From positions 17,989 through 81,988 of the forward strand of contig PWNV01000014.1 of assembly GCA_003557645.1 (NCBI GenBank): a DNA stretch of 64,000 nt, read 5' to 3'. Shown here piece by piece: positions 15,719 through 48,742 of this stretch. The notes under the pieces were generated by a model. The model ran no database searches and was not told the DNA's origin. It worked only from the letters and a program-made list of their open reading frames with translations. Both the position numbers and the translations under genes were made by a program. Source of the DNA: Candidatus Nealsonbacteria bacterium. Its GTDB lineage: Bacteria; Patescibacteriota; Minisyncoccia; Minisyncoccales; PWPS01. How positions within the stretch are numbered: position 1 is the stretch's first letter; the number at the start of each line of letters is the position of its first letter.

Positions 15719-15781
15719 CGGTTTGATTAATCCTAAAAATAATCACTTTCATTTTTTAATAAAAAATATTATAATTGTTAA

Positions 15782-16216: not shown

Positions 16217-16292
<76 letters not shown>

Positions 16293-21440: not shown

Positions 21441-21464
21441 ATAAGCTTTCCTAAAAGTAATTCT

Positions 21465-26119: not shown

Positions 26120-27124
26120 CTATCTAACTTGTCCTCCAACCGGGATGTGAGAAAAAGGATTCCTTATTCTTCTGGAAAGAATATCAAAGTGAACATGGCA
26201 TCCTGTTGAAAGTCCCGTAGTTCCCATTGTTCCAATTTGCTGTCCTTGATAAACTCTCTCTCCCACTCCAACATGCATTCCTTGTAAGTGTCCATAAAAA
26301 GCAACTACACTTCCATGATTGATCTTGATAAAGTTCCCCGCTGGCCAGGTATTGTAGGCTCTCTCTATTACTACTCCAGATTGCACGGCATAAATCGGGG
26401 TTCCACAGTTGTTAGCAATATCAACTGCATTGTAGTGGTGGGGTCCCTGTGTAAGGATTCCTGTTGCTGGAGGAATAAAGTGCATTGATGGAGTTGGCCT
26501 TGGTACAGTAGTTCTTGGAATTGGCGGCTGTTCCCCTCCTGGAACAATTATTAAGTCTCCTGGATAAATATTCTCAACGTATAGATTATTAAATTTTTCT
26601 ATCTCCTCCTTTTTTGCTTTATGTCTCTCTGCAACTTCAGACAAAGTATCCCCTGCTTCTACATAATACATCACTCCCGTAACAGGGAGGATTGTTAATT
26701 CTTCTCCCGGTTTTATCTTATCTCCCTTTATGTCGTTTGCCCATCTTATCGTGTCTTTGCTAATTCCAAACTTATCGGCTACATTATCAAGGGTATCTCC
26801 TTCTTCAACTTTATAAGAGATTATGCTGTTTCTTTGATCTATCCCGCCTCCTCTACCCATCACTTGAGAAGTTACAAAATAAGGAGTGGAATCAGAGAGA
26901 AGAGTGTTTTCGTGAGTAAATACAATCGGCTTAAAATCATCAAAAGATTCTCCTTGATAAGAAAGAAATATATCAATATCAGAAACAAAGCTCTCCTCTG
27001 AATAATCTTTCCTGTCTATAAAAAAACTTGAATCTGTAAAATGATTTAACGCTAAAAGAGAGAACACAAAAAGAAGGAAAAACTTACTTTTCCCCTTAAT
27101 GGCTACAAATCTACCTTGGCTCAA
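26120..27124 (-). CDS. LysM-domain M23 family peptidoglycan endopeptidase
   Basis: Two LysM repeats (GDTLDNVADKFGISKDTIRWAN; GDTLSEVAERH), M23 motifs HHYNAVD and HVHFD. Confidence 0.85.
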   Translation of the reverse strand: MSQGRFVAIKGKSKFFLLFVFSLLALNHFTDSSFFIDRKDYSEESFVSDIDIFLSYQGESFDDFKPIVFTHENTLLSDSTPYFVTSQVMGRGGGIDQRNSIISYKVEEGDTLDNVADKFGISKDTIRWANDIKGDKIKPGEELTILPVTGVMYYVEAGDTLSEVAERHKAKKEEIEKFNNLYVENIYPGDLIIVPGGEQPPIPRTTVPRPTPSMHFIPPATGILTQGPHHYNAVDIANNCGTPIYAVQSGVVIERAYNTWPAGNFIKINHGSVVAFYGHLQGMHVGVGERVYQGQQIGTMGTTGLSTGCHVHFDILSRRIRNPFSHIPVGGQVR

Positions 27125-27226: not shown

Positions 27227-28072
27227 ATGACCCTAACAAACAAAGACATTCTAAAAGAAGCTCTCGATAATTACTCCATAACTCCCAAAAAATCACTGGG
27301 ACAAAACTTCGTTATAGATAAGAATGTTATCAAAAAAATTTGTGACTGTGCCGATCTTTCAAAAGAAGATCAAGTCCTTGAAATCGGTCCGGGAACAGGA
27401 GCCCTTACCCTTTCTTTAGCGGAAAAAGTAACTCACGTCACCGCAATAGAAAAAGATAGGAGATTGATGCCCTTACTTCTTGACCTAACAAAAGAGACCA
27501 AGAACATAAGTGTCGTACATAGTGATATCTTGGATTTTTCCATTCCTTTCAAAAAGTATAAAGTTATAGCAAATCTCCCTTACTACGTTACTTCTCCTAT
27601 AATAAAAAAATTCTTAGAAGAATATTTTCCTCCTGAGATGCTTGTTCTCACTGTTCAAAGAGAAGTTGCAGAGAGAATAATAGCGAAACCTCCTAAAATG
27701 AGCCTCTTGTCTGTCTCCGTACAATTTTATGCCGATGCCAAGATAATATCTCACATTTCAAAAAACTCTTTCTGGCCACCTCCTTCTATCGAGTCTTCTA
27801 TTATAAAAATTACTCCAAAGAAAAATTCCTTTGATAAAGCTTTTAAGGAAGATTTTTTCCGCATCCTTAGAAAAGGATTTTCTCATCCCCGAAAACAAAT
27901 ACTAACCAATTTCCAGCTTGACAGAGAAAAGAAAAGTGGGGTAGACTTTACAAAACGAGAGATAATCTGTAACCTTATTAAAAAAAGTAACGTTGATGCA
28001 AGAAAGAGGCCCGAAAGCCTAAACATAGATCAATGGAAATCCCTAACTAAAAATCTTTCAAAAATCATCTAA
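27227..28072 (+). CDS. rsmA: 16S rRNA (adenine1518/1519-N6)-dimethyltransferase
   Basis: SLGQNFVIDKNVI, LEIGPGTGALT SAM motif, NLPYYVTSPI. Confidence 0.85.
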   Translation: MTLTNKDILKEALDNYSITPKKSLGQNFVIDKNVIKKICDCADLSKEDQVLEIGPGTGALTLSLAEKVTHVTAIEKDRRLMPLLLDLTKETKNISVVHSDILDFSIPFKKYKVIANLPYYVTSPIIKKFLEEYFPPEMLVLTVQREVAERIIAKPPKMSLLSVSVQFYADAKIISHISKNSFWPPPSIESSIIKITPKKNSFDKAFKEDFFRILRKGFSHPRKQILTNFQLDREKKSGVDFTKREIICNLIKKSNVDARKRPESLNIDQWKSLTKNLSKII

Positions 28073-28083
28073 TATAAAGCTTC

Positions 28084-31000
28084 ATGAAAAAACTTTTTCT
28101 CCTTTCTGCTCTCGTTTGTTTTCTCGCTCTTTCTTTTAACTTCGTGCTGGCAGACGACCCCCCTAAATGTACTCCCAAATGTGAGTGCATTTATGCTGAA
28201 ACTGAGCCCGAGCATGCAGGATGTGGTTTTCCAGAGTGTGGAGGAGTGGTAATAGAGTACTGGTATGATACAAGATGTGGCACGGGTTTTTGTTATGAAG
28301 TTGAAAACGAGTCCAACGGACCCTGGGAAGACGCTAGGCCTGAATGTAATTGGGGTTGGTCTTGTCATCCGGGATGCTTAGATCTTCCCACACCTGACTA
28401 TTATTGGGCTGATCCGGGAGAAACAATTAAACAAAAAGATTATCCTATCGCCTCTCAGTACCCATACGATGAAACTCCAAACGAGAGAGTATATCTTCCT
28501 GTTAAGCTTGGTTGGGACCATATAAGAGGATGGATGCACCCAACAGGACCTAAGTCTTATCGTATACAAATAGACGGGACAACCAGAGATTATCCCCCTC
28601 CTTACTCCTATCCTCCCGCTGACCCGTCCGACCCTGATCCTCCTGGCGGCCCAGGACCATCCCCTCCCGCAGAGGGATTTCTTACTTGGCCAGTTGATAA
28701 TATTTTTAATGTTAGTGATTACTACGCTCAAGACAGACGGGCAGCATCTTTTCCTTATCTCACAGACTATCACACTGGAATTGATTTTTTTGGTGGCAAC
28801 GTCCCGATATATGCAGCGGGCAACGGAGAAGTAGTAAGAGTAAACAGAAGCCTCCAGGCAGGGATGGGAAGATGGGTCTTGATCAAGCACCCCGGCATAA
28901 CCTCCACCGATGGAAGAACTGTCCTTACACGCTATCTCCACTTAAAGAGCATTGATCCCAATCTCAACGAAGGAGATATGGTCACTGCAGGACAACAAAT
29001 AGGAATAATGGGAGGAACAGGAAGTAGTGAAAATAGTTACGCCATACATCTTCACTGGGATGTTTGTTTTGGAAGTTGTAGGTACAGTAACTGGCCTAAT
29101 GAATTTGATGACCCTCTTAATTACATTACTCGTGATCAAAGGTGGGCAGACTTTATAGAAGCAAGAAGAAGTCACCACAATCACGGAAGAGAAAATTACT
29201 ATTGGCCGGGAACTGTGCCTATTTATATAAGTAATAAAGACACCGACCCCTTCGATCTTTACAACACCCCTCCTCCAACCACTTCTCTTAACAGCTCATC
29301 TTCTTCTTGTTCTTTGGTGACAAACGACTCTCTTCCCTCTAACGAAAATAATACCTCCTTTTTATCAGAGCTATCCTCTTCTTTCGTTTTGACATCAAAC
29401 TCTTTAGAAATAACTCTTGAAGAGTGTCTCCGCACCAATCGATTTATTGCTGATAAGTGTCTTCTACGGTCAGACTATAATCACAACTGGAGAGTGCAGG
29501 GCTGTTGTGACACAGAGTGTAACTCGTGTCACCCCACATGCTGGTCAGAATATGATTTTATAACAGACGAAGCTCCTGAACCTATTGAGCCATATGATCC
29601 TAGCTGGGCTGGAGATTACGGAATGGCAGGAGGTCATCATAATCCACTAGGCTTCCAAGACGCAAACTCAAAATGGTGTGATCCAGAAAACGAAGACGAT
29701 TATAAGGGTTATCTCCTTCTTGCTTTTAAGGAAATAAACGGAAATATGGTCTGTCATCCTGATCGTCTTCGTCCCGATGGCGTTTGTCGTCCTATTCTTG
29801 TCCGAGATGACAATCCTGTTCCTATCCACAGAGGACCTCCTCCCACAGAGATTATTAATATAAGAGAAGACCTTTTCAATGAAATAGGAGAAATATTTGC
29901 CTGGAGGGTGGCTGCTTGTGAGGATCATAAAATGGAAGACTGCTCTGACTATAGCCAGAAATGGAGACTTATTGTTGGAGACACAATAAAAAACCCTCAT
30001 GATTTTCAACCCGCAAACGACCCTGAAGGAGAAACTCCTATTGGAATTTATCCAGACGCTACTTTTAGATGGAACTGGCCCTTTGGAGCACACTCTTTTT
30101 GGTTCCAGCTTGCCGTAGATAACGAAAATCAAGACGTCATAATAGAAGAACTCCTAACCACTAACAGCTTTACCGTTCCAGCAGCAACTTTGGGAATTGA
30201 AAATCGCTTTATCTGGAGAGTTAAATCTTGCTACGATGAAGATGGAGAGAACTGCCTTGAAGAGTGGACAGAAAACATTCACTTTACTACTACGGGAAGA
30301 CCTCCTAACCTAGAGGAGACAGCCGTTCCTCCCGACGGAAGTGAGGAAGTGACTATTCCCCTTACCATAGAGTGGGAATCTGTCCCTGGAGCACAGTCAT
30401 ACATCTTTAGAATAGATGGAGAAGAGAGGCGTGTTTCTTCAGAAAAAATTCATCTTAATTATCCACAACTTAAAACAGGGACTGAGTACTCATGGACCGT
30501 AAAAACTTGTGCTGATCCGGGGGGCTCTGCTTTTTGTGGAGGATTTTGGTCTCCTGAAGTAAAATTTACAACTCTAGTTCTTCAGCCCCCTACAAATCCT
30601 AGCCCTGAAGACAATTCCACTCTTTTCACAGACACAAGAAGCATTAACGCTTCTTGGAGCAAGGCCAGAGGAGCAAACTATTACGAGTATGAGATTAGCT
30701 ACCCAGGAGGAGAAACAGAAAGTGATATTATTTCTGGAACATCCTTTTATGTCAACCTTTTTGACTTGGGAACATATAATTGGAGAGTTCGGTCTTGTCT
30801 TGACAGTAACTGCGAAGACAGCAGCGCTTTTTCCAACTGGAGCTTCACCTACGAAGAAATAGAAGCAGATGGAGTGGGTCTTGTTCCTTGTGGAAGGGCA
30901 TACGACAGCCCTAGCACTCCATGGAACGAGAGAGAGCCTTGTCAGTTGAAACATCTATTTATATTGTTTAAAATATTGACTGATTTTGTCCTTTGGAACC

Positions 31001-31224
31001 TTTTCCCAGTTGCTCTTGTTTTAATGGTTTTAACTACTGGTGCTTTGTTTTCGTTCGCTTCACCTTTGGGACCAAGCGTACTAGCAAGAGTAAAACTGTT
31101 ATGGAAAGGAGTAGGAATTGGTTTTGTTGTTCTTTTCTTTGGTTGGATTATTTTAACAATAGGTCTGTCAATGATAGGATACGACGCAGGTATCTACGGT
31201 CCGTGGTGGCAAATCAACTTTTAA
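28084..31224 (+). CDS. Giant secreted multidomain protein: Cys-rich N-domain, Pro-rich linker, M23 peptidase, four FN3-like WRVxxC repeats, C-terminal VirB2-like pilin/membrane domain
   Basis: Signal peptide; DYHTGIDFF...HLHWD M23 motifs; repeats FAWRVAACED / FIWRVKSCYD / YSWTVKTCAD / YNWRVRSCLD; C-terminal GLVPCG...CQLKHLF plus two TM helices matching ORF 15782..16201. Confidence 0.75.
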   Translation: MKKLFLLSALVCFLALSFNFVLADDPPKCTPKCECIYAETEPEHAGCGFPECGGVVIEYWYDTRCGTGFCYEVENESNGPWEDARPECNWGWSCHPGCLDLPTPDYYWADPGETIKQKDYPIASQYPYDETPNERVYLPVKLGWDHIRGWMHPTGPKSYRIQIDGTTRDYPPPYSYPPADPSDPDPPGGPGPSPPAEGFLTWPVDNIFNVSDYYAQDRRAASFPYLTDYHTGIDFFGGNVPIYAAGNGEVVRVNRSLQAGMGRWVLIKHPGITSTDGRTVLTRYLHLKSIDPNLNEGDMVTAGQQIGIMGGTGSSENSYAIHLHWDVCFGSCRYSNWPNEFDDPLNYITRDQRWADFIEARRSHHNHGRENYYWPGTVPIYISNKDTDPFDLYNTPPPTTSLNSSSSSCSLVTNDSLPSNENNTSFLSELSSSFVLTSNSLEITLEECLRTNRFIADKCLLRSDYNHNWRVQGCCDTECNSCHPTCWSEYDFITDEAPEPIEPYDPSWAGDYGMAGGHHNPLGFQDANSKWCDPENEDDYKGYLLLAFKEINGNMVCHPDRLRPDGVCRPILVRDDNPVPIHRGPPPTEIINIREDLFNEIGEIFAWRVAACEDHKMEDCSDYSQKWRLIVGDTIKNPHDFQPANDPEGETPIGIYPDATFRWNWPFGAHSFWFQLAVDNENQDVIIEELLTTNSFTVPAATLGIENRFIWRVKSCYDEDGENCLEEWTENIHFTTTGRPPNLEETAVPPDGSEEVTIPLTIEWESVPGAQSYIFRIDGEERRVSSEKIHLNYPQLKTGTEYSWTVKTCADPGGSAFCGGFWSPEVKFTTLVLQPPTNPSPEDNSTLFTDTRSINASWSKARGANYYEYEISYPGGETESDIISGTSFYVNLFDLGTYNWRVRSCLDSNCEDSSAFSNWSFTYEEIEADGVGLVPCGRAYDSPSTPWNEREPCQLKHLFILFKILTDFVLWNLFPVALVLMVLTTGALFSFASPLGPSVLARVKLLWKGVGIGFVVLFFGWIILTIGLSMIGYDAGIYGPWWQINF

Positions 31225-31233
31225 TTTAAATAA

Positions 31234-31920
31234 ATGTCTGATAAAAAAATAGTTATTGTAAGTTTCTTAATGATAGCTTTTCTGGTTCTCTCTACATATA
31301 TCCACAGTCAAAGAACTAGAGATATTCAAGAGAACGGCCATCCCGTGCTGCCAAGCAAAGAGTTCTCTTCTTCCGATCATTCTCTCCCCAAGTTAGAAGA
31401 CATTATCAGTGAAAGATCTGGAGAAAATCAAGGAGAGAGACTAAGAGAGCCCGAAGAAATCGAGTATAAAGAATTTATAGATCAAGATAACAAAATAACG
31501 GTAGAGTACCCTTCACACTGGAAAGTTACAGAAGATGCAACTCCCTTAGGGCAAGATAATATAGATTTCCTTTTTGTTGCTTTCTTAGAAGGATCCTACG
31601 AAGTAAGGGCTGGAATGACCATTTTGAGAGGACAAAACTTAGATGAAGACAGTAATTTGCTTGAAAAAACAGAAAGTACTTTTGCCGATGCCGCTAGCCG
31701 AGAAATTTTAGAAGAAAAAGAAACCGAAAACGGGAAGATATTTAAGACAAAATATAAAGATTCATTAGGAGAGATTCGTGGCAAAGAAAAGGTTATGCAG
31801 GCTAATGATAGTAGTTACATGGTCTCCGTTTTTGTGATGTCTCACTCCTGGGAAGATTTCTTACCTCAAACAGATCATATAATTAATTCTGCCACAATTA
31901 GAACAGAAAACGACTTATGA
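31234..31920 (+). CDS. Hypothetical bitopic protein (N-terminal TM plus periplasmic/extracellular domain), VirB8-like topology
   Basis: Single TM (IVIVSFLMIAFLVLSTYI) then about 200-aa soluble domain; size and topology as VirB8 but no sequence motif recognised. Confidence 0.35.
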   Translation: MSDKKIVIVSFLMIAFLVLSTYIHSQRTRDIQENGHPVLPSKEFSSSDHSLPKLEDIISERSGENQGERLREPEEIEYKEFIDQDNKITVEYPSHWKVTEDATPLGQDNIDFLFVAFLEGSYEVRAGMTILRGQNLDEDSNLLEKTESTFADAASREILEEKETENGKIFKTKYKDSLGEIRGKEKVMQANDSSYMVSVFVMSHSWEDFLPQTDHIINSATIRTENDL

Positions 31921-33035
31921 TAAAAAAACCCACCTTACTAAAAATAACAAAGCTTGCACTTGTCTTTCTATTTTTTTCTTTTCTTCCTTTTACTTTTTCT
32001 TTTGCCGGCGAAGATCCGGCTGAAACAGAAGTTATCTGGCCCACCTCTCCTGTAGGAACAGAGTTTACTCGAGACATGCCATTGCACGAGCTTATCGCTT
32101 ATTTTTATGAATGGGGTATTGTTATCGGAATACTGGCAGTGTTTGGTATTTTGGTTTTCGCCGGATTTCAATACACAATTTCTGCTGGAAAGCCTGCCAT
32201 GATGACAGACGCCCTAAGTAGAATTCAAGCTGCAATAATTGGTCTTGTTCTTCTTTTATCTTCTTGGCTAATATTAAGCATTATTAACCCTGAATTGGTA
32301 AAAATTTCTCCTATCACATTTAGTATTTCTGATGAAATACGTGGATTAAATCTTGACGTTGATGATCTCTACGGAGCACCAGTCGACGCTGTAGAGTTCT
32401 ATCCTAAAAAGAATTATGAAGGAGATATTATCTCCACATTATATACTCCAAAAAGATCAACATATGAAATAAGAATAGAACAAGTTCATTATTTAAGTCA
32501 GGGTGGAACAGTTGCTGCTCCAGGAGAAGGAGAAGCAATTCCTCCAGAATCAGCAAGAGGATTTACAGCTATTCCTCCTTCCGAGATGATACAGTGGGAA
32601 CAAGGAATAGATCTTGATTATCAAAGATACAGTCATCCTCCTCTAGATGGAGTACTCGCAGGAACAGGATCATATCTCTCCTTTGGACAAAAAATGATTC
32701 CAGATCCCGAAGGTCTTTATAAAGAAGGAGGATCTTCTTTAGTTGATCTTTACGAAGAAACAACCAGGGGTTTTTGGGACTGGCTTACGGGAACGAAAAT
32801 TAATTGTGAAAGCAAATTAAGTCGAGGAATAATTTCCACGGTTGATGTTAGAGAAGGAATTTTTGGTTTTGACAGAGAAATAAACTGCATGATAATTGAA
32901 CGAAGACACGTGCCTTTAGATGATGCCTTGTTTGGTAGTCCTGGTGAAAACGCGGTAAGAGTTTCTCCCGTTTTTTGCGATGGAGGTGATCCGTGTTTCT
33001 ACAATCCTCCGGAAGACGAAATTCCAGAAGATTAA
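31917..33035 (+). CDS. VirB2/TrbC-like pilin domain protein with about 240-aa C-terminal extracellular extension
   Basis: Signal peptide, LHELIAYFYEWGIVIGILAVFGILVFAGFQYTISAGKP...IQAAIIGLVLLLSSWLILSIINP two-helix pilin pattern. Confidence 0.55.
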   Translation: MIKKPTLLKITKLALVFLFFSFLPFTFSFAGEDPAETEVIWPTSPVGTEFTRDMPLHELIAYFYEWGIVIGILAVFGILVFAGFQYTISAGKPAMMTDALSRIQAAIIGLVLLLSSWLILSIINPELVKISPITFSISDEIRGLNLDVDDLYGAPVDAVEFYPKKNYEGDIISTLYTPKRSTYEIRIEQVHYLSQGGTVAAPGEGEAIPPESARGFTAIPPSEMIQWEQGIDLDYQRYSHPPLDGVLAGTGSYLSFGQKMIPDPEGLYKEGGSSLVDLYEETTRGFWDWLTGTKINCESKLSRGIISTVDVREGIFGFDREINCMIIERRHVPLDDALFGSPGENAVRVSPVFCDGGDPCFYNPPEDEIPED

Positions 33036-33065
33036 ATGTAAGTTATTTTTGATTAAATATAAAAA

Positions 33066-35306
33066 ATGAATTTTTTAAAGGAAAAGTGTAAATCTAAACT
33101 GAGACACGTGTTCACTCTACTATTTTTTCTCTTCTTCCTTTTTATTCCGGAGATAACAGAGGGGTTTGCTTTTAGTCTTGGAGAAAAGCAGCTTGCAGGT
33201 CTTTCTGAAGTAGTGGGTCCAGTTTTGGCTCTTGGTATCTTTCTTTTTGCCTTCCTTATTTTTTCCTACGGCCTTTTAGTGGTAGCAACCGAATATTTGC
33301 TAGCAATTATCATCTCTACTCCCGATGCTCTTACGCTGAGTGCAGAAAAAGCTCCTTTTGTAGATATAGGATGGCAGTTTATTCTAGGAATATCCAACAT
33401 GCTCCTTATTCTTGCTTTTATTGTTATTGCTATCTCCGTTATATTAAGATTCGAAAATCTTGGCTTTAAAAAGGCATTTCCTAGACTAATCGGTGTTGCC
33501 CTTCTTATAAACTTCTCACTGGTGTTTGTAGGGATGGGAATTGATATCTCGAATGTTTTTTTTAGCACTATTGAAAATGAGCTTATTCTAGAGATGGATC
33601 CTGAGTGCTCTTGGCAGGCCGCAGGTCTGGGAGATTGTCCAGAAGACACCAGCCCAAGTGCCGAAGGGAATTGTCTAGGACCAAATCCTGGAGGATCTCT
33701 TTGTTGCTGTTATGAGGCAGAAACCACCACCCTTATATCCGAATCAATGGAGATGCTCTTCTCTGGGGCAGCTCAAAGAATAATTAATTTTGGCGCTATT
33801 CTCGCTGGTTTTGCAGCGGCAATGTTAATACCTTATGTATCTGTAGGGGTGCAGTTTGCAGTTATTATAGCTGGTGTAGTCTGGTTCTCCGATATTATGG
33901 CAATGCTTACTCAGGGACTAATAATGTTTCTTCTTGCAGGAGCTTTCTTTCTCTTTTTTATTATTTTCCTTGTACGAATCTTTGTTATTCAAATACTTGC
34001 TATCGTCGCTCCCCTTGCCTTTATTTGTTTGATTTTCCCAGGAACACAGTTATATAAATATTTTGAAATGTGGGTAAGAAGTCTTCTTCAGTGGCTTTTT
34101 GCTGGTATTGCCTTCCTTTTTCTGCTCATCCTTGGCTTTAATATGGTTGGTATGGTAGATGGTCTCGTAGGGGTTATCGGAGATTTAGAAGTAGAAGGAG
34201 AAAATACCTGGGTTGTTGCAATAAAGAACGTCTTCTTAGACAGTGGTTTTGTTTACTATATCGTCCTTCTTGTTTATTTTGTAACTATTCTTTTTTTCGG
34301 TAAAAAATTCATTCCAGCTGGAGTAGATGCAATGATTAGTCAAGCTAAGTCTGTTAGCTCTTCGGTTACCGGAATAGCAGGAAAAGCATTTAATCGTAGC
34401 CTTGTACCAAAGAGAGCGCAAGATCAAGCCAATGTTCCCGAAGGAGCTGAGAACATGGCAAATTGGATGAGAAAGAGTAGAGTGCCTGGAGCAAGACTAG
34501 CAGCCCCTACTGTTGCTAGATGGGCTAAGAGAAGAAAGGACGAGGCGGAAAAAGAAGCAAAAGAGGTATCAAGAGACTTTCGTCGTATGGATCAAGTAAG
34601 AAGAGCGGGCGGAACCCAGCAAGAATTAAAGGCGTTATCTTCTACAGGAACTAAGAGACAACGCCACGGGGCAGATTTAGCTTGGGAGGCTAAGATAGGT
34701 GAATTAGAAAAGAAGAAAAAAGAAGTAGAAGAAAGTAGAGGAAAAGCTCCATCAAGATCTGAGGTTGAAAAAGATCTTCCAATAAGAACAGGTGAATCTA
34801 CAACAGACTGGAAGATAAGAGTCGGTAAGGAGCTAGACAGAAGAGAAAGGCAACACAACGCCCCTGTAAGAAGAGTTGAAAAAGAGATAGAATCTTGGAA
34901 TCGAATGGCCCCTCATTTGGGAGCTCCTAATGAAGATGATATTGCAAAAAAGATTCCAAAGGTGGAAGGAGAATCTAGAACGCAAAGAAAACAGAAAATA
35001 CAAAAAGCAATGGACGAAGCCTTAAACAAGCATAGAAGTAAAGTAGGAAAAACCGTTAATGATATGTCTCCAAGTGAACAAGCAAGCATGTTGTCTTCTG
35101 CCTATGATAATAAGACGGTTGTTACTCACATGACAAAAAAGAAGGCTAATATTGATGCGCTGGTGGAGAAGAAAAATTATAAGAATCTAAGAAGAACAAT
35201 CAAAACTTTCAATAAGCTTCATCCTAAAGTACGACAAAAGAGAAGAAAAGTCTTCGATACAATAACAGCCACTCCCGCGTGGAAAGAAGCTAAAAGAATA
35301 AAATAG
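33066..35306 (+). CDS. VirB6/TrbL/TcpH-like polytopic membrane protein with Cys-rich loop and long basic C-terminal tail
   Basis: Signal/TM1 plus at least 7 further TM helices, extracellular loop CSWQAAGLGDCPEDTSPSAEGNCLGPNPGGSLCCC, about 300-aa Lys/Arg-rich cytoplasmic tail. Confidence 0.55.
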   Translation: MNFLKEKCKSKLRHVFTLLFFLFFLFIPEITEGFAFSLGEKQLAGLSEVVGPVLALGIFLFAFLIFSYGLLVVATEYLLAIIISTPDALTLSAEKAPFVDIGWQFILGISNMLLILAFIVIAISVILRFENLGFKKAFPRLIGVALLINFSLVFVGMGIDISNVFFSTIENELILEMDPECSWQAAGLGDCPEDTSPSAEGNCLGPNPGGSLCCCYEAETTTLISESMEMLFSGAAQRIINFGAILAGFAAAMLIPYVSVGVQFAVIIAGVVWFSDIMAMLTQGLIMFLLAGAFFLFFIIFLVRIFVIQILAIVAPLAFICLIFPGTQLYKYFEMWVRSLLQWLFAGIAFLFLLILGFNMVGMVDGLVGVIGDLEVEGENTWVVAIKNVFLDSGFVYYIVLLVYFVTILFFGKKFIPAGVDAMISQAKSVSSSVTGIAGKAFNRSLVPKRAQDQANVPEGAENMANWMRKSRVPGARLAAPTVARWAKRRKDEAEKEAKEVSRDFRRMDQVRRAGGTQQELKALSSTGTKRQRHGADLAWEAKIGELEKKKKEVEESRGKAPSRSEVEKDLPIRTGESTTDWKIRVGKELDRRERQHNAPVRRVEKEIESWNRMAPHLGAPNEDDIAKKIPKVEGESRTQRKQKIQKAMDEALNKHRSKVGKTVNDMSPSEQASMLSSAYDNKTVVTHMTKKKANIDALVEKKNYKNLRRTIKTFNKLHPKVRQKRRKVFDTITATPAWKEAKRIK

Positions 35307-35317
35307 CATCAATTACT

Positions 35318-35725
35318 ATGCCTAAAAAAATAATCTATCCTAAAAATACCAAAGAAGTAATTCAGAGAATTATCGAAGATAGTAATAGGTTAAAATCAAT
35401 GCAAGAAAAGGCCTTTGAGAGATGGAGTAATTCTAAAGAAGGAGAAGAAAGTGAGAAAATTATGTTTTCCTCTCCTGGAGGTGTTATTTCTGAAGCCATC
35501 TCAGACTTTGCGCACGGTGAAATCAAAAAAGAAGATCTGGTCCCTTTGTTTGTTGAGCGCCTTGAAATTAGTGAAAAAAGAGCTCAAAAAATTAAAAAAA
35601 TCTTAAGTACAGAAATATTTCCCCTCCTCTCCTCTTCTGGTGGTAAGAAAAGCAAAAGTGTTTCTTCTGAAGGAGAAAAGAAAACAAAAAAAGAAAAAGA
35701 CCCTTATAGAGAGCCCATAACATAA
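35318..35725 (+). CDS. Hypothetical small Lys/Glu-rich protein
   Basis: ORF only; no recognised motifs. Confidence 0.35.
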   Translation: MPKKIIYPKNTKEVIQRIIEDSNRLKSMQEKAFERWSNSKEGEESEKIMFSSPGGVISEAISDFAHGEIKKEDLVPLFVERLEISEKRAQKIKKILSTEIFPLLSSSGGKKSKSVSSEGEKKTKKEKDPYREPIT

Positions 35726-35747
35726 CTCTCTTTATTGTTATTAAAAA

Positions 35748-35775
35748 AGACCGGTACTCTTTAGTGTACCGGTCT
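35748..35775. terminator. Bidirectional terminator, perfect 10-bp palindrome
   Basis: agaccggtac-N8-gtaccggtct followed by T-rich tract; between convergent genes. Confidence 0.7.
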
Positions 35776-35783
35776 TACTTCTT

Positions 35784-37028
35784 CTAATAAAAGAACTTTA
35801 GCCTCCTTTTCCAGGAAAGCTTTGTTTTTGGTTTATACTTTTTCTTGCCGTGATCAGCATCCTCATCGTCGTCATCATCGTCGTCATCATCATCGTCAAT
35901 CTTCTGCCTACTCTCTTTTTCCTTCTCTACTTTCTCTATCTTTTGCTGCTCTTCTTTTTCTCGTTTTTTGTCTTCTTCTTGAATATTTTTTCCTTGTGGC
36001 ATTCTGAGGAATCCCGCAATTGTATTAAGGAAGCTTTTCTCTAGTGATCCGCCTCCCTCAACATCAATATTTACGTAACTACCATTTTCCATTGCCAATT
36101 TTTTCTTGATCATTTCCCTTGCCCAGCGAGCAAAGACTTCCTTCATCTCTGGGTCTTCTCTTATTTCCTTGGCAACTTGACGGGGAGTCTTTCCATAAGC
36201 TTCCGCCATCATATAGACAACGGTCTTAGCGATTTCTCCGGACCTTGCTTTGGCTTTAAATTCTTGCTTTTGTTCGCTGGCCAAAGCCTTTGAGATCTCT
36301 TCGTCCATCGGGGAGATATCAAGGAAAGTAACTCCCTCCTCAGCTATCTTCACTCCCCATTTACGAAGCGTCCCTCCTTCTTCTCTTAACAGTTTGCTCT
36401 CCTTGAGATACTCCCAAATCTTTGCACTTTTAAGTTTGTATAAGTCTTCAAATGAATAACTCGAAACAAAAGAGCGCATCACTCCATCGATTTGGGACAA
36501 CGCTTCCTCTAGTGAGTTCTCCGGAGAGACAAAGAGGAAAAGATAAGGATTTTCAATTTTTAAAGTAACTAAATATTTTACCCTAACTTGAAACCTCTCT
36601 GGCCTTTTCGTTTCAGCGTTCTCTATTTCCGAAGAGTAAACCTCAGGCTTGAGCTTTACTTCATTGAACTCTTCCTTTGCTCCTTTTATACCTTCTTTAC
36701 GCCCATGTTTGTCACTCCATGAGATAGAATAAGTATAAGTTTTTTTGAAGGGAAAGAGTCCAAAATAAAAGAGACCACCAAAAATCCTTCCAGTAATTTT
36801 CTTCCTTACTGCTCCTACTGCTTCGTCGTGCCCTTCTCGTAGCACAGTAAAATTTTCATCCATAAAATGATCTCTCCAGACCATTTTAAAGGAATGAAAC
36901 TGACCAAAGGACATTATTGCCCGAGCCGTTCCTTCTTTAACACTTCCAAAGGAGTGTCTTAGAAAAAAATAAATAAAAGAAACAATACTTCCAAGAAAAA
37001 GAAGAATCAAGACAGTCCATATAATCAT
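35784..37028 (-). CDS. SPFH/band-7 domain membrane protein with C-terminal poly-Asp tract
   Basis: N-terminal TM, KWGVKIAEEGVTFLDISPMDEEISKALASEQKQEFKAKARSGEIAK pattern of SPFH C-region; 9xD+E+D stretch. Confidence 0.5.
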   Translation of the reverse strand: MIIWTVLILLFLGSIVSFIYFFLRHSFGSVKEGTARAIMSFGQFHSFKMVWRDHFMDENFTVLREGHDEAVGAVRKKITGRIFGGLFYFGLFPFKKTYTYSISWSDKHGRKEGIKGAKEEFNEVKLKPEVYSSEIENAETKRPERFQVRVKYLVTLKIENPYLFLFVSPENSLEEALSQIDGVMRSFVSSYSFEDLYKLKSAKIWEYLKESKLLREEGGTLRKWGVKIAEEGVTFLDISPMDEEISKALASEQKQEFKAKARSGEIAKTVVYMMAEAYGKTPRQVAKEIREDPEMKEVFARWAREMIKKKLAMENGSYVNIDVEGGGSLEKSFLNTIAGFLRMPQGKNIQEEDKKREKEEQQKIEKVEKEKESRQKIDDDDDDDDDDDEDADHGKKKYKPKTKLSWKRRLKFFY

Positions 37029-37150
37029 CTCTACACCTCCATTTTTAAGTTGTTAAGTGTACATTTTCTGCCTTTATTTTTTTTATCATTAAATCTTGCT
37101 TTTGTCAAGTACTCTCTTTACTTGCCTTCTCTTTGTGCTAAAATATTTAC

Positions 37151-37567
37151 ATGAGATTCAAAGTTCCAAGAAATATTGAGCATGAAGCAAAAGTAGTGGG
37201 GCCCGCTACTTTTCAGCAAATTCTTCCTATTGGAGGGGCCTCTTTTATTATCTTTATTCTTTACCTTTTACTTAGAGAAAAAAGCATGTTCCTCTTCTTT
37301 TTTCTCTCTACTATCGTTGCTTCCGGCGGCTTCGCTTTGTCTTTTTTAAAAATCAATCAGATGCCCTTATCCCAATACATCAAAAATTACATTTCTTTCT
37401 CCCTTGCTCCGCGAGAGTATATCTGGAAGAAAAAGGAGAAAACTATTAATATATCTACAGAAAGAAAAGCCACGGTAGTAAAAGAAAAAATAGAGAAAGA
37501 AGAGGAAAACAAGCCAAGAAAAGAAAGTCAAATAAATAGAATCAGCTCAAAAATTGATTCACTTTAA
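37151..37567 (+). CDS. PrgI/VirB3-like small membrane protein
   Basis: MRFKVPRNIEHEAKVVGPATFQQ N-terminus then two hydrophobic helices; located immediately upstream of VirB4 as VirB3/PrgI genes are. Confidence 0.5.
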   Translation: MRFKVPRNIEHEAKVVGPATFQQILPIGGASFIIFILYLLLREKSMFLFFFLSTIVASGGFALSFLKINQMPLSQYIKNYISFSLAPREYIWKKKEKTINISTERKATVVKEKIEKEEENKPRKESQINRISSKIDSL

Positions 37568-37569
37568 AT

Positions 37570-38199
37570 ATGCCCTTAAGCACTCAAGAATTACTTGAAA
37601 TTAAGCAGATTAGAGAAGGTGTTCTCGTCCTCAAAAACAACCAGCTACGAGGAATTTTGATGGTTTCGTCAATAAATTTTGTTTTAAAATCTGAAGAAGA
37701 GCAAAAAGCAACTATTTATCATTTTCAATCCTTCTTGAATTCCTTGGATTTCTACTTACAGATAGTTATTCAGTCTAGAAGAACAAATATTAGGGGATAT
37801 ATTGATAAAATCAAGAAAATAGAAAAAGAACACACTAATGAGCTTTTACAGTTTCAAATAGCGGGTTATATAAAGTTCTTGGAAGACTTTGTAAGAAAGG
37901 AAGATGTTTATAGTAAAAACTTTTTTGTAATCATTCCTTATGGTGTTGGAGAGACTAAAACATCAACACGTGATGTTATGGCTGCTAGAAAAGGAACCCT
38001 TACTGATGAGATTTTTGAAAGGGCAAGAGATCAGCTATATCAAAGAATGGAGTTTGCCGCTTTGGGTCTTCGTAGGTGTGGTCTCCACTCCGCTCCATTA
38101 ACTTCTTCTGAAATTATAGAATTACTTTGGAGTATGCATCATCCAAAACAAGCAGAAAAGGGATATTTCCCAGAAATACCTGATGAACTTATTATGTAA
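37570..38199 (+). CDS. VirB4/TrsE/PrgJ-like ATPase, N-terminal fragment (split gene, part 1)
   Basis: REGVLVLKNNQLRGILMVSSINFVLKSEEEQKATIYHFQSFLNSLDFYLQIVI matches VirB4 N-terminal region; ends 17 nt inside next ORF in different frame. Confidence 0.6.
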   Translation: MPLSTQELLEIKQIREGVLVLKNNQLRGILMVSSINFVLKSEEEQKATIYHFQSFLNSLDFYLQIVIQSRRTNIRGYIDKIKKIEKEHTNELLQFQIAGYIKFLEDFVRKEDVYSKNFFVIIPYGVGETKTSTRDVMAARKGTLTDEIFERARDQLYQRMEFAALGLRRCGLHSAPLTSSEIIELLWSMHHPKQAEKGYFPEIPDELIM

Positions 38200-40021
38200 A
38201 ATGTCACATTTTATAAAAAATTTTAAAGAAATTCTTGGCTTAAATCTTCCTGGTAAAAAAACTTCTTCCAAGCCAGAGGAAGATGATGACTTTTTTGAGA
38301 TAAAAGACATTATCGCTCCTTCTTTTATAGAAGAGAAACAAGGAATGATAAAAATAGGTGAGAAAAGTTGTCGCTCTTTCTTTGTTTTCTCTTACCCTCA
38401 TTACCTTACAAGCGGTTGGCTTATCTCAGTAATTAACTTAGGAGCACAGATGGATATATCTTTTTTTATTCATTCTGTAGACACAACTCTTATTTTAAAA
38501 AAACTAAGAAAAAAACTTACTGAGGTTCAAGCAGAGATAATGGAAAATGAAAGTAAAGGAATTGTTCGCGATCCTGCTTTGGAAACAGCTCATCAAGACA
38601 TGGAAGATCTACGAGACAGACTTCAATCTGCACAAGAAAGAATGTTCCAGTTTGGCTTTTATATTACTATTTACGGAGATAATGATAAGGAGTTAGAGGA
38701 CATAGAAACCGTTTTAAGGTCTATATTGGAAGCAAAGGTAGTTTACCTTAAGTCTGCTCTCTTTCAGCAAAAGGACGGCTTTATTAGCACCTCTCCTTAC
38801 GGAAGAGATATACTTCAAACCCACAGCCCGATGAATACAGAACCCCTTTCCAGTATCTTCCCCTTTATTTCTTCCGAACTTACCTCTAACGACGGAATTT
38901 TATACGGAATCAACAAGCACAATAACTCTCTTGTTTTGTTTGATCGTTTTGAATTGGAAAATCCAAATCAAATAGTTTTTGGAACTTCGGGAGTAGGAAA
39001 ATCTTATCTCGTAAAATTAGCACTTCTAAGGTCTATTATGGTAGGCTCGGAAGCTATTGTTATTGATCCGGAAAACGAATACAAAACATTAGCCGAAGCA
39101 GTCGGAGGCTCTTTTTACGATATTTCCCTAGGTTCAGATAATCATATTAACCCTTTTGATATACCAGTTCCAAAAGAAGACGAAACAGCAGAGGAAGTTT
39201 TAAGGACAAATACCATTAATTTGGTTGGACTTTTAAGAATGATGTTGGGAGGATTAACTCCAGAAGAAGATGCTGTTATTGATCAAGCTATTTATGAGAC
39301 TTATGCAGCAAAAGACATCACAGCAGACAGTGATCCGAGTACATGGGAAGAAAAAGTACCTCTTTTTTCAGATTTAGAACAAATATTAGAATCAATGGAA
39401 GGAACAAGATCTCTGATGCTGCGTCTTAGAAGATTTTCAAAAGGAACTTATTCTAAGTTTTTTAACCAACACTCTAACGTCAAACTTGAAGGAAATCTAA
39501 CTGTTTTTGGGATAAGAGACCTTGAAGAAGAGCTCCGTCCGATGGCAATGTTTATTATTATGCGCTATATCTGGAAAACAGTAACCACCTCTATGAAAAA
39601 ACGAGTTCTCGTAATTGATGAGGCTTGGTGGATGATGCAGAGCGAAGATGGAGCATCATTCCTTTTTGGCTTAGTCAAAAGATCAAGAAAATACTGGTTA
39701 GGAGTTACTACTATTACTCAAGATGTTGCTGATTTTATGCGTTCCGAATACGGTCAACCCATCGTTACCAACTCTGCTCTAAAGGTACTACTTAAACAGT
39801 CCTCTGCTGTTATTGATAAAATTCAAGAAACATTTAGCCTTACAGATCAAGAAAAATTTATCCTTTTAGAAGGACAAGTGGGAGAGGGTATCTTTTTTGC
39901 TGGTCAAAAGAGAGTTGCTATTGAGATTACTGCCTCTCCTGCAGAAGACCAAATTATTACCTCTTCACCTGAAGAGATAAAGAAAATAAAGGATAAAAAG
40001 AGAAAAGAAGCAGGACTCTAA
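38183..40021 (+). CDS. VirB4/TrsE/PrgJ-like ATPase, C-terminal part (Walker A and DEAW Walker B)
   Basis: DIIAPSFIEE...FFVFSYPHYLTSGWL, Walker A GTSGVGKS, Walker B VLVIDEAWWMM (VirB4 family DEAW signature). Confidence 0.7.
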   Translation: MNLLCKMSHFIKNFKEILGLNLPGKKTSSKPEEDDDFFEIKDIIAPSFIEEKQGMIKIGEKSCRSFFVFSYPHYLTSGWLISVINLGAQMDISFFIHSVDTTLILKKLRKKLTEVQAEIMENESKGIVRDPALETAHQDMEDLRDRLQSAQERMFQFGFYITIYGDNDKELEDIETVLRSILEAKVVYLKSALFQQKDGFISTSPYGRDILQTHSPMNTEPLSSIFPFISSELTSNDGILYGINKHNNSLVLFDRFELENPNQIVFGTSGVGKSYLVKLALLRSIMVGSEAIVIDPENEYKTLAEAVGGSFYDISLGSDNHINPFDIPVPKEDETAEEVLRTNTINLVGLLRMMLGGLTPEEDAVIDQAIYETYAAKDITADSDPSTWEEKVPLFSDLEQILESMEGTRSLMLRLRRFSKGTYSKFFNQHSNVKLEGNLTVFGIRDLEEELRPMAMFIIMRYIWKTVTTSMKKRVLVIDEAWWMMQSEDGASFLFGLVKRSRKYWLGVTTITQDVADFMRSEYGQPIVTNSALKVLLKQSSAVIDKIQETFSLTDQEKFILLEGQVGEGIFFAGQKRVAIEITASPAEDQIITSSPEEIKKIKDKKRKEAGL

Positions 40022-41840: not shown

Positions 41841-43193
41841 ATGATTACAGAGAAAGAAAAACTTTGGCAATCAGTCTTAGCTCAAGTTCAATTAAATACC
41901 TCTGAAGCAAATTTTAATACATGGTTTAAGGGCACTCAAATTTATTCCCTTGAGGATCCTAAAATAATTATTGCTGTTCCTAATTCTTTTGTAAAAGAGT
42001 GGCTAGAAAATAAATATAACAAAATAATACTTAAAACAATAAAAGAGCTAAATAATAATATAAAAGAAATTAATTATATTATTAAAACCCCTAGCAAAAA
42101 AGAAGTAGAGAGAGAGGAAAAGATTGGACCGATTAATCAAATGCAATTTCAAGAGTTTTCAGTAGACTCATCTACAGGTCTAAATCCTAAATATACATTT
42201 GAAAATTTTGTAGTTGGTCCTTTTAATGAACTCGCACATGCTGCTAGTTTTGCTGTTTCAGAGAGTCCCGGAACAATTTATAATCCCCTTTTTATTTATG
42301 GGAAAACAGGGCTTGGAAAAACACATCTTTTACAAGCAGTAGGAAACGAGATAAAAAATAAAATTAAGAATAAAAATATTTTATATATTCAAGCACAAAA
42401 GTTTATCTCTGAAGTAGTTTCTTCTATAAGAAATGGAAAGATGGAGGAGTTTAAAAATCAATATAAAGATATTGATATTATTATTATTGATGACATTCAA
42501 TTCCTTTCAGGAAAAGAAAAAACACAAGAAGAGTTTTTTCATATTTTTAATGAATTATATGAGAAAAATAAACAAATTATTCTTTCTTCAGACAGACCTC
42601 CAAAATCAATTAATGCTCTTACTGATAGATTAAGATCTCGATTTGAAGGAGGGATGATTACTGATATAGATTATCCTGATCTTGAAACTAGAGCCGCTAT
42701 TCTTAAGAAGAAGGCTATCGAAAAAGAATTTAATCTTTCTGATGATGTCTGTTCTTATATAGTAGAAAATATTCAAAAAAATATCAGAGAATTAGAGGGA
42801 GTTTTAAATAAATTAATAATTCATCAAAAAGTTCATAAAGAAGATATTAATATGGACAGAATAAAGATTGTTTTAAAAAATATAATTCAATCTTCAACAA
42901 CCTCTTTTTCTTCACAAAATATATTTAAAGTTGTATCAGATTATTATGAAATTAATGAAAAGGAGATAAAAAGCTCTTCTAGAAAAAGAGAAATTGTAAA
43001 ACCAAGACAAATTATAATTTATTTATTAAGAAATGAATTAAATTATTCCTTTCCTTATATTGGTAAAAAAATAGGAGGAAAAGATCATACAACAATAATA
43101 TATTCTTTTAATAAAATAAATAAGGATTTAAAAATAAATGAAGATTTAAGAGAGGAGATATCATATATTAAACAAACAATATCTTCTATGTAA
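41841..43193 (+). CDS. dnaA: Chromosomal replication initiator DnaA
   Basis: AAA+ Walker A GKTGLGKTHL, DnaA domain IV; rpmH-dnaA-dnaN synteny. Confidence 0.9.
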   Translation: MITEKEKLWQSVLAQVQLNTSEANFNTWFKGTQIYSLEDPKIIIAVPNSFVKEWLENKYNKIILKTIKELNNNIKEINYIIKTPSKKEVEREEKIGPINQMQFQEFSVDSSTGLNPKYTFENFVVGPFNELAHAASFAVSESPGTIYNPLFIYGKTGLGKTHLLQAVGNEIKNKIKNKNILYIQAQKFISEVVSSIRNGKMEEFKNQYKDIDIIIIDDIQFLSGKEKTQEEFFHIFNELYEKNKQIILSSDRPPKSINALTDRLRSRFEGGMITDIDYPDLETRAAILKKKAIEKEFNLSDDVCSYIVENIQKNIRELEGVLNKLIIHQKVHKEDINMDRIKIVLKNIIQSSTTSFSSQNIFKVVSDYYEINEKEIKSSSRKREIVKPRQIIIYLLRNELNYSFPYIGKKIGGKDHTTIIYSFNKINKDLKINEDLREEISYIKQTISSM

Positions 43194-43369
43194 AAGTTGT
43201 GGAAAAGATGTAAAAAAGATGAATATAATTAAAACTTCTTTTTTTCTCCTTATTTATCCCCTTTTCTTTTTTCCTTTTTTACCACTTTTCTTCAATTATT
43301 TTCCCCACCTTATTTAAGTTTAAAAACTAAATTAATAACATCTTTAATAATAACAATAAATTTAAAAGT
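43194..43369. promoter_or_regulatory. Second DnaA-box cluster between dnaA and dnaN (bipartite origin)
   Basis: tgtggaaaa (43198, reverse box), tttatcccc (about 43253), ttttcccca (43310); AT-rich. Confidence 0.55.
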
Positions 43370-48056: not shown

Positions 48057-48742
48057 ATTTTTGTATTTAAATAAACTCCCTCAACTGATGATAAACTATC
48101 TAAGTCGTCAAAAAGCTTTTTATCACTTTTACTTGCAGGGCCGATGATATCGTTTGCTCTCCAACCTAAAGTGAATGAAGATATTTTTTCTCCCAAAACA
48201 TTTTTTAAGTTTTCTGTTGCTTGAGGGGAAACGTAAAGAAAAAAGGAGTGGTTTTTTTCTTCAACATCTTCTACGTTATGTTCTATTGCTTTCGTTAGCA
48301 TTTCTTCATTTTTTTCTGTTTCAATAATTCCCTGAGGCTGGAAGAGCCACTTTACAGCACCTGGCTTAACAAGTTTTCCTCCATGTTTTTTCAATATTTC
48401 TTTTATTTCGTTTAAGTCACGATTTCTATTATCAGTTGATCCTTGAATAAGAAAAGCTGATTGATCTGGTCCGTAAGCCTCAAAAAGAAAAGGCTCAAGC
48501 TTTCCTTCTTCTCCAACACCCATACCCCTTTTTATTGCGCGGTTAATATTTTCTTTAGGCATATCGGCTTCTTTTGCCCTTAAAATAGCCATACGGAGAG
48601 CAGGATTAGATTGGGGATCATCCCCTTTTTCTCGTACAGCAGAGATCAGGAGACGTGCCATTTTTGAAAAAAGCACGGCTCTTTTTTTGTCTTCTGCTTC
48701 CTTTTTTCTTTTTATGTTTTTGAAGTGACTGTGTCCTGCCAT
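48053..48742 (-). CDS. yebC: YebC/PmpR family transcriptional regulator
   Basis: MAGHSHFKNIKRKKEAEDKKR... conserved YebC N-terminus. Confidence 0.85.
   Translation of the reverse strand: MAGHSHFKNIKRKKEAEDKKRAVLFSKMARLLISAVREKGDDPQSNPALRMAILRAKEADMPKENINRAIKRGMGVGEEGKLEPFLFEAYGPDQSAFLIQGSTDNRNRDLNEIKEILKKHGGKLVKPGAVKWLFQPQGIIETEKNEEMLTKAIEHNVEDVEEKNHSFFLYVSPQATENLKNVLGEKISSFTLGWRANDIIGPASKSDKKLFDDLDSLSSVEGVYLNTKI

Follow-up and report, generated by a model that had tools for sequence, protein, structure and literature searches.

The block of genes found at positions 28084–40021 of a 64,000-nt stretch of contig PWNV01000014.1 (GCA_003557645.1, Candidatus Nealsonbacteria bacterium), hereafter the window, raises the question of what kind of machine it encodes, and whether this machine travels on a mobile element or is a resident of the chromosome. 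Our analysis, in which the block is known from its sequence alone, indicates that it is very probably a chromosomal, vertically inherited type IV secretion system (T4SS) of the Patescibacteria type and of monoderm MPF_FATA descent, in a genome akin to Candidatus Nealsonbacteria (Paceibacteria). The block codes for a cytoplasmic-membrane T4SS module composed of a split VirB4 (TrsD plus the ATPase body), a PrgI/VirB3 protein and an extended VirB6, and also for VirB2-type pilin-domain proteins, and it is located beside the replication origin as in most relatives. The locus is a further instance of the published Patescibacteria T4SS, a kind of system that is already known: VirB4, TrsD, PrgI, VirB6 and a pilin array without relaxase are the usual set for the phylum (PMC12102498), and the set of components that the initial annotation of this stretch had called unusual is a normal one. 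The less ordinary detail is the presence of a cell-wall-cutting M23 peptidase within a giant pilin-domain protein.

Two studies provide the frame for this assignment. Wang et al. (2023) described in Ca. Southlakia epibionticum a Gram-positive-like T4SS cluster which is essential for epibiotic growth, holds essential pilin genes and has no recognisable coupling protein or relaxase (PMC10633639). Quinonero-Coronel et al. (2025) surveyed 3,035 Patescibacteria genomes and found VirB4 in 2,417, the Patescibacteria VirB4 forming a clade nested in MPF_FATA, with TrsD as the most abundant partner and with PrgI/VirB3, VirB6 and arrays of VirB2-like pilins as neighbours of virB4; VirB8 can seldom be detected and hardly any relaxases occur, the locus lies near dnaA, dnaN, rnpA, ksgA and rpmH in Paceibacteria and Microgenomatia, and its origin is ascribed to a single ancient transfer or to ancestry, followed by vertical inheritance (PMC12102498). 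The first description of the block, as a Gram-positive-type (MPF_FATA-like) T4SS with VirB2-like pilins in a CPR (candidate phyla radiation) genome, matches both accounts (PMC10633639, PMC12102498), and an open reading frame (ORF) scan recovered every ORF that had been placed between 28084 and 40021. Searches with profile hidden Markov models (HMMs) confirmed the VirB4, PrgI, T4SS_pilin and SPFH assignments. For comparison we have carried out a VirB4 scan of one genome per species, which yielded 80 related loci; many of the contigs are truncated and the counts given for these loci are lower bounds. The best genomic matches of the VirB4 were Patescibacteria metagenome-assembled genomes (MAGs) in 80 of 80 cases, at 52–85% identity, and its nearest relative among the 80 species-level loci is a Candidatus Nealsonbacteria MAG.

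The core of the machine is formed by three contiguous genes of the plus strand. The VirB4 ATPase body (612 residues, 38183–40021) scores 361 bits against the NCBIfam CD1110 family (cutoff 325, E 1.3e-107) and also matches the Pfam TraG P-loop family (E 7.5e-27); it spans positions 186–734 of the 752-position VirB4 profile, and both its Walker A (GTSGVGKS, residue 267) and Walker B (VLVIDEAW, residue 475) motifs are intact. A score above the curated family threshold together with intact Walker motifs identifies the locus as a VirB4-based T4SS, and the ATPase with a DEAW Walker B, for which the lack of a VirB4-family match had been named as the decisive objection, is thereby confirmed by a strong match. 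Its best solved relative is the C-terminal domain of a Gram-positive VirB4 (PDB 4AG5, E 2.7e-44), followed by TrwK (E 1e-5). The missing front part of the profile is accounted for by an ORF of 209 residues (37570–38199) that had been overlooked in the earlier gene list: it matches NCBIfam TrsD (E 3e-9), positions 104–232 of VirB4_plasma (E 1.1e-9) and positions 5–81 of the CD1110 profile, and is a separately encoded VirB4 N-terminal domain without meaningful match when its sequence is searched against the PDB. Judging from these profile matches, TrsD and the 612-residue ORF jointly make up a full-length VirB4. That the VirB4 might be frameshifted or pseudogenised was considered and ruled out, given that 77 of the 80 relatives likewise have TrsD as an ORF of its own, about 210 residues long. 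Directly upstream of TrsD, as in 72 of the 80 loci, lies the gene of a PrgI/VirB3-like protein of 138 residues with two transmembrane (TM) helices (37151–37567), whose Pfam PrgI match (E 1.2e-10) and TM profile bear out its first annotation.

The fourth component is a polytopic protein of 746 residues (33066–35306, plus strand), a counterpart of which is found in about 56 of the 80 loci. Hydropathy indicates a TM domain of about 480 residues with some 7–8 helices, followed by a basic cytoplasmic tail of 266 residues with 69 Lys and Arg against 40 Asp and Glu. The protein itself, TM domain included, has no Pfam match, and its identity emerges from the family: Pfam TrbL/VirB6 is matched by 7 of 43 aligned relatives (best E 2.4e-7), PF04610 is present in 2 of 29 database homologues, and the top PDB match of the family profile is TrwI, the VirB6 of R388 (E 0.0022). 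In agreement, an AlphaFold2 model of the TM domain, with a predicted local distance difference test (pLDDT) score of 74.7, retrieves TrwI as top Foldseek match (probability 1.00, E 0.02, target-normalised TM-score 0.52). Family profiles and predicted fold together confirm, at the level of a model, a VirB6-like protein, and the VirB6-like polytopic protein with a basic tail holds, the relatives' Pfam matches and the TrwI fold supplying the VirB6/TrbL resemblance upon which the initial annotation had made it depend. Residues 165–238 form a Cys-rich external loop (…ECSWQAAGLGDCPEDTSPSAEGNCLGPNPGGSLCCCYE…), which is modelled with low confidence.

The block starts shortly after ksgA (27227–28072), which ends 11 nt before it, and is followed by jag, yidC, rnpA, rpmH, dnaA and dnaN, so that its placement between ksgA and jag-yidC-rnpA-rpmH was correct. 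This setting is shared: jag, yidC, rnpA, dnaA and dnaN are found downstream in 48, 60, 36, 55 and 50 of the 80 loci, respectively, and ksgA upstream in 28. The GC content at third codon positions (GC3) of the T4SS genes (0.24–0.38) is like that of the housekeeping genes of the window; GC is somewhat raised at 28–31 kb (0.42–0.44), and the excess in the giant gene of this region falls on codon position 2, which relates to an amino acid composition rich in Pro, Gly and Cys. Neither tRNA genes nor att-like direct repeats were found at the borders of the block. By synteny and composition, the block is a conserved, vertically inherited, origin-proximal chromosomal cluster. That it might be universal at the origin of its relatives and serve an unrelated function had also been contemplated: the location is indeed largely shared, and the function would be a related one.

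Domain HMM scans of the large ORFs of the 64-kb window revealed no relaxase, no type IV coupling protein (T4CP) and no integrase, and the statement that VirD4 coupling protein, relaxase and VirB11 are lacking nearby stands for these ORFs. The features of a conjugative MPF_FATA mobile element, namely a relaxase, an origin of transfer (oriT), a VirD4/TcpA coupling protein and carriage on a plasmid or an integrative and conjugative element (ICE), were not found here, and those of the Patescibacteria clade of T4SSs were: a separate TrsD adjoining virB4, genes for PrgI/VirB3, VirB6 and VirB2-like pilins close by, a neighbourhood with dnaA, dnaN, rnpA, rpmH and ksgA, and neither relaxase nor T4CP adjacent among the large ORFs of the window.

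We turn to the proteins that this module would handle. The first gene of the block (28084–31224, plus strand) encodes a giant secreted protein of 1046 residues in which a signal peptide and a Cys-rich region are followed by a Peptidase_M23 domain (residues 229–327, nt 28768–29064, Pfam E 2e-16), about five Ig/FN3-like repeats with Cys pairs and a C-terminal T4SS-pilin-type two-helix domain (residues 932–1043, nt 30877–31212), with two TM helices by hydropathy. The zinc motifs of the peptidase, HxxxD (H230..D234) and HxH (H322-L-H324), are intact, and the preserved ligands suggest an active wall hydrolase; with respect to the hydrolases of the VirB1 type, M23 with intact zinc ligands is what was seen, SLT and CHAP domains not being found. 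The protein has 34 cysteines, mostly paired inside the repeats; along with the Cys-rich loop of the VirB6-like protein, these suggest that disulfide bonding outside the cell is extensive in a CPR organism.

The relationship of the giant C-terminus to pilins is visible only through iterative and profile-profile searches. When isolated, the C-terminal 120 residues have neither a BLASTP match to the pilin domain of the 372-residue protein described below nor a Pfam match, and a word-indexed homologue search with the domain returned 2 matches only. A phmmer search with the same segment directly matches the 139-residue PF18895 pilin of the window, hhalign relates its family to that of the 372-residue pilin-domain protein (probability 96.7%, E 3.7e-10), and PF18895 is matched directly by 18 of the 56 members of the giant's family, a widespread one made up of proteins of 400–1668 residues with the pilin-type domain at the extreme C-terminus. 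On account of the phmmer result, of iteration, of hhalign and of the PF18895 matches in the family, a T4SS-pilin-type domain is supported at the sequence level, and the giant secreted M23 protein with a C-terminal VirB2-like pilin domain survives as first described.

Two further pilin-domain proteins are encoded on the plus strand. The first one (31917–33035, 372 residues) has a signal peptide and two TM helices and scores above the cutoff of PF18895 T4SS_pilin (31.1 bits against 26.6, E 2.6e-7); its pilin domain covers residues 56–131 (nt 32082–32309) and precedes a C-terminal ectodomain of about 245 residues without Pfam match, in accordance with the second VirB2-like pilin with large extension of the original gene list. 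It is this score and this topology that establish VirB2/T4SS_pilin proteins in the block, the giant C-terminus having no direct Pfam match. The second one is a small stand-alone pilin of 139 residues (15782–16201), at 25.5 bits slightly under the PF18895 cutoff of 26.6 (E 1.4e-5) and with a TrbC match at E 0.058. This protein is the closest paralogue of the giant C-terminal domain, with which it aligns over common GLVPCG..CQLxHLF..WWQ motifs, and it is a candidate for a major pilin encoded apart from the cluster. Its gene is flanked by tRNA-Arg (15645–15719) and tRNA-Lys (16217–16292) and lies 12 kb upstream of the block.

The joining of pilin domains to large extensions is a general property of these loci. 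An iterated search of the ORFs in the 80 related loci retrieved 103 pilin-domain ORFs, the 372-residue protein among them, and an extension of at least 100 residues is present on 89, only 14 having the size of VirB2. In 72 of the 103 the domain is near the N-terminus and is followed by at least 100 residues (median 438 residues, maximum 1436), and these 72 proteins form class B, the class of the 372-residue protein; in 8 the domain closes the protein and is preceded by a large secreted region, as in the giant protein (class A), and in 9 it is internal. A search with the class-A pilin profile against 1.84 billion representatives gave 7423 clusters at E ≤ 1e-3 and 157 at E ≤ 1e-30, the top 150 matches being mostly proteins of 400–1668 residues that end in the domain; among 56 class-A proteins, 28 carry Ig-like repeats, 5 carry M23 and 1–2 carry C39/C70-like peptidases. 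Fusions of M23 and pilin domain occur in 5 loci, with M23 before the pilin domain in the window protein and in L001 and after it in L002, L016 and L037, and both the HxxxD and the HxH zinc motifs are intact in all 4 full-length fusions. The positive-inside rule and the topology of VirB2 would place both kinds of extension outside the cell. The large ectodomains and the occurrence of M23 fusions in both orientations suggest, from sequence, pilin-anchored wall hydrolases. Pilin-domain genes are located downstream of VirB4, in the gap between virB4 and jag, in many relatives (L015, L017, L025, L033, L035, L041, L044 and others); the pilin array has thus moved within the locus, the PrgI-TrsD-VirB4 core remaining fixed.

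Four other features lie inside the block. Between the giant gene and that of the 372-residue pilin, a bitopic membrane protein of 228 residues (p228, 31234–31920, plus strand) consists of a TM helix at the N-terminus that a disordered linker joins to an ectodomain of the PsbP/Mog1/DcrB-like kind, with a weak Pfam match to PsbP_2 (E 0.007) and with relatives of its family in 8 of the 80 loci; a word-indexed homologue search gave 4 matches. Its proposed VirB8 topology holds as far as the single N-terminal helix seen by hydropathy is concerned, and its identity as VirB8 is rejected, as the modelled ectodomain is PsbP/Mog1-like and not NTF2-like as in PrgL, TraM or TcpC. Together with the TrsD split of VirB4, this corrects two likely annotation errors. 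The type VI secretion immunity proteins Tsi3 and TplEi have the same fold as p228; a role as M23 immunity protein was nevertheless not adopted, because homologues persist in L002 and L003, where neither an M23 gene nor one for a class-A pilin-domain protein precedes them. The VirB6-like gene is directly followed by that of a small soluble protein of 135 residues with a Lys-rich C-terminus (p135, 35318–35725, plus strand), which has no significant Pfam or NCBIfam match and no TM helix by hydropathy; its family occupies the same position in 21 of the 80 loci. On the minus strand, as first annotated, 35784–37028 encodes an SPFH/Band-7 protein of 414 residues with an acidic poly-Asp tail; it scores above the Pfam Band_7 cutoff (30.6 bits against 23.6, E 4.3e-7), has an N-terminal TM helix and is found in the same place and on the same strand in 14 of the 80 loci; it is a candidate membrane scaffold. 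The convergent p135 and SPFH genes are separated by a palindrome (AAGACCGGTAC..GTACCGGTCTT, 35747–35776) with an 11-bp stem, 6 GC pairs and a T-run on the minus strand, a probable bidirectional terminator by its sequence. Terminator and inverted-repeat scans found no other strong palindrome: the terminator previously said to flank the block is in fact inside it, and the VirB4/jag edge has no space for one, since the stop codons of the two genes overlap.

Around the block, the minus-strand gene directly upstream of ksgA (26120–27124) encodes a second M23 peptidase, with two LysM domains (Pfam M23 E 2.9e-23, LysM E 8.8e-20); the pair formed by this gene (minus) and ksgA (plus) precedes the T4SS genes in 17 of the 80 loci, and from this conserved position the protein may be a neighbourhood wall hydrolase tied to the T4SS. 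Further upstream, 19197–24365 (plus strand) encodes two probably coiled-coil proteins of 747 and 966 residues, rich in Lys, Glu, Arg and Asp (52–59% charged), with recurring ERWK(V/I)EE(K/R)R..IEKE.W motifs and no Pfam match; these genes account for the purine skew at 19–24 kb (AT skew up to 0.55, GC skew 0.36) and are followed by that of a 443-residue protein with one TM helix (24379–25710). On the origin side, dnaA and dnaN (41841–44488, plus strand) have a GC of 0.26–0.28 and a GC3 of 0.14–0.15, against a GC3 of 0.22–0.41 in the other genes examined; rnpA is likewise low, a local compositional anomaly of the origin region, and a single near-consensus DnaA box (TTTTCCACA, at 41743) lies upstream of dnaA. 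Beyond these, on the minus strand, a T2SSE-family ATPase of the PilB/PilT/GspE type (50387–51688, E 1e-119) adjoins ruvB and is probably part of a type IV pilus or type II secretion system distinct from the T4SS, and a 223-residue lamin-tail protein (48712–49383, LTD, E 1e-10) is encoded between ruvB and a YebC/TACO1-family gene.

How might these components work together? VirB4, docked via TrsD and PrgI on a VirB6 platform, would pull the pilin-domain proteins from the membrane, the platform being proposed after the model for R388, where the pilus is assembled at VirB6. The extracted proteins would form a pilus or stalk across the cell wall toward the host cell, with the 139-residue pilin as its likely bulk subunit and the giant M23 protein and the 372-residue protein probably as low-number or tip subunits; these would display adhesive Ig-like repeats and the M23 endopeptidase, which would cut peptidoglycan cross-links of the own wall (in a VirB1/PrgK-like role), of the host wall, or of both. 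The SPFH protein would probably scaffold the membrane complex. With neither relaxase nor coupling protein nearby, attachment to the host and exchange with it, be it effector export or macromolecule uptake, are the most likely roles of the machine, rather than conjugation. A use other than classical conjugation, already put forward in the initial annotation, is probable and agrees with the published description of Patescibacteria T4SSs; effector delivery and uptake of host molecules are the roles on which others have speculated (PMC12857230, PMC11665869), and tubular structures that may be T4SS pili are described in a 2026 preprint from a parasite-host interface (bioRxiv 10.64898/2026.06.21.733656).

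Several points weigh against this interpretation. VirD4 homologues are far from virB4 in most genomes (PMC12102498), and a T4CP could here lie outside the 64 kb. Published accounts call the function of the Patescibacteria T4SS completely unknown (PMC11665869; likewise the review PMC12857230), and a T4SS pilus in monoderms is only suggested, by the tubular structures of the preprint (bioRxiv 10.64898/2026.06.21.733656). The pilin assignment draws on Pfam PF18895 and topology, a PDB search with the pilin profile giving no sequence-level match to any solved VirB2/TraA structure; an ectodomain on every pilus subunit would clash sterically; and the model of p228, from a shallow alignment, has only moderate confidence (mean pLDDT 58.8).

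A first alternative is that the block encodes a machine for DNA or RNA uptake, like ComB of H. pylori or the archaeal Ced system, which would draw nucleic acids of the host through the pilus or channel and so feed a bacterium unable to make nucleotides. It fits the architecture proposed above, the cargo and the direction of its transport being the only differences. Acquisition of nucleotides via the T4SS has been speculated upon (PMC11665869), as has feeding on host RNA along with the tubular structures (bioRxiv 10.64898/2026.06.21.733656), neither T4CP nor relaxase was found nearby, and PNPase and RNase Y genes are present in the window, even if these are housekeeping genes. The VirB4 weakly resembles the import ATPases of the Ced system (CedB E 4.6e-18, CedD E 2e-5), yet it is far closer to conjugative VirB4 proteins (E 1e-107 against 1e-18), and no ComEC/ComB-like or nuclease partner is seen in the block. 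We regard this alternative as rather unlikely.

A second alternative concerns the filament itself. The pilin-domain proteins might not polymerise, their hairpin being a membrane anchor or a T4SS export tag for surface enzymes and adhesins, and VirB4 and VirB6 would then form a short channel across the wall and no pilus, in the manner of classical Gram-positive T4SSs. This would accommodate the large size of most pilin-domain proteins (median 438 residues, up to 1436, with 14 of 103 small), the pilin profile without match to solved pilins and the fact that monoderm T4SSs normally have no pili (PMC12102498, PMC12857230). However, members of VirB2 size do exist, the 139-residue protein of the window included, which is itself weakly TrbC/VirB2-like; the domain belongs to the Pfam T4SS_pilin family; the pilin arrays of S. 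epibionticum are essential and lie inside its T4SS cluster (PMC10633639); and tubular structures have been reported at the parasite-host interface (bioRxiv 10.64898/2026.06.21.733656). We regard a machine without pilus as unlikely.

Finally, that the block is an accessory island or a recently acquired ICE with a Gram-positive conjugation apparatus, as might be read from a VirB4 that matches best the families of conjugative elements (CD1110 of CTn2, Mbov_0397 ICE) and from the higher GC at 28–31 kb, is highly improbable in view of the same genes in the same chromosomal setting in as many as 77 of the 80 relatives, one per species, of a GC3 equal to that of housekeeping genes with the giant gene's GC excess at codon position 2, of the lack of tRNA or direct-repeat borders and of relaxase, T4CP and integrase among the scanned ORFs, and of the vertical inheritance, after one ancient transfer or ancestry, deduced in the literature (PMC12102498).

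Within a resident, pilus-building T4SS, the pilin fusions invite a bolder proposal. The pilin domain of Paceibacteria could be a modular anchor by which large ectodomains are brought onto a filament built by the T4SS, the whole being an enzyme-tipped 'drill' that breaches the host wall and opens a conduit for feeding or exchange; we put this forward tentatively, as something possible rather than likely. Under it, the ectodomains would comprise, by their sequences, Ig-repeat adhesins, catalytically intact M23 domains and occasionally C39/C70 peptidases, and the M23 fusions in both orientations may reflect selection for delivery of the hydrolase by the pilus. Across about 80 related species, large proteins with ectodomains account for most 'pilins' of these loci, and M23 peptidases which look active by sequence have become joined to the pilin domain on more than one occasion. 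This offers a testable hypothesis, in which pilin domains anchor wall hydrolases and adhesins where parasite and host meet, and the interest of this lead stems from the fact that the Patescibacteria T4SS is essential in the one member of the phylum that is genetically tractable. The main text of the papers on Patescibacteria T4SSs cited here (supplementary tables aside) does not mention M23-pilin fusions, the PsbP-like protein or the SPFH protein.

The comparison with known systems places the locus closest to the Patescibacteria-clade T4SS (such as SEML1_0006-0019 of Ca. Southlakia epibionticum ML1). Both have VirB4 with a separate TrsD, PrgI/VirB3, VirB6 and several pilin genes, relaxase and T4CP not being nearby, and in Paceibacteria the system is likewise near dnaA, dnaN, rnpA, rpmH and ksgA. 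The differences are of detail: the pilin genes lie upstream of VirB6 in the lineage of the window, whereas in several relatives they are downstream of VirB4; the giant class-A protein has an inserted M23 domain, as do 5 of the 56 family members; and PsbP-like and SPFH genes are inside the cluster in a subset only (8 and 14 loci).

With the MPF_FATA systems, for which pGO1/pSK41 trs (TrsC, TrsD, TrsE), C. difficile CTn2 (CD1110) and pCF10 prg/pcf (PrgI, PrgJ, PrgH, PrgK, PrgL) were taken as references, the locus shares a VirB4 that matches best the CD1110 family, over its cutoff, the TrsD-type VirB4 split, which is the pGO1 arrangement, a PrgI-family VirB3 and a putative M23/LytM hydrolase associated with the machine, as PrgK of pCF10. 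In PrgK, a hydrolase of a monoderm T4SS, the M23/LytM domain is degenerate (PMC11323569), whereas the M23 zinc motifs of the window are intact. Furthermore, no relaxase, T4CP, PrgB-type adhesin or NTF2-fold VirB8 (PrgL/TraM) was detected in the window, which in turn has the VirB2-like pilins that MPF_FATA systems do not have, and the locus is chromosomal and vertically inherited instead of being carried by a mobile element.

The resemblance to the Gram-negative VirB systems and to that of R388 (Trw) is restricted to individual parts: VirB4 is related to TrwK, the VirB6-like protein is nearest to TrwI in both profile and fold, and the pilin-domain proteins have a signal peptide and a two-helix VirB2-like topology. 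The outer-membrane core formed by VirB7, VirB9 and VirB10, the VirB5 tip protein, VirB8 and VirB11 have no counterparts in the window, and two elaborations set its proteins apart from those of Gram-negative systems: the VirB6 bears a basic tail of 266 residues, and the pilin domains are joined to ectodomains of hundreds of residues.

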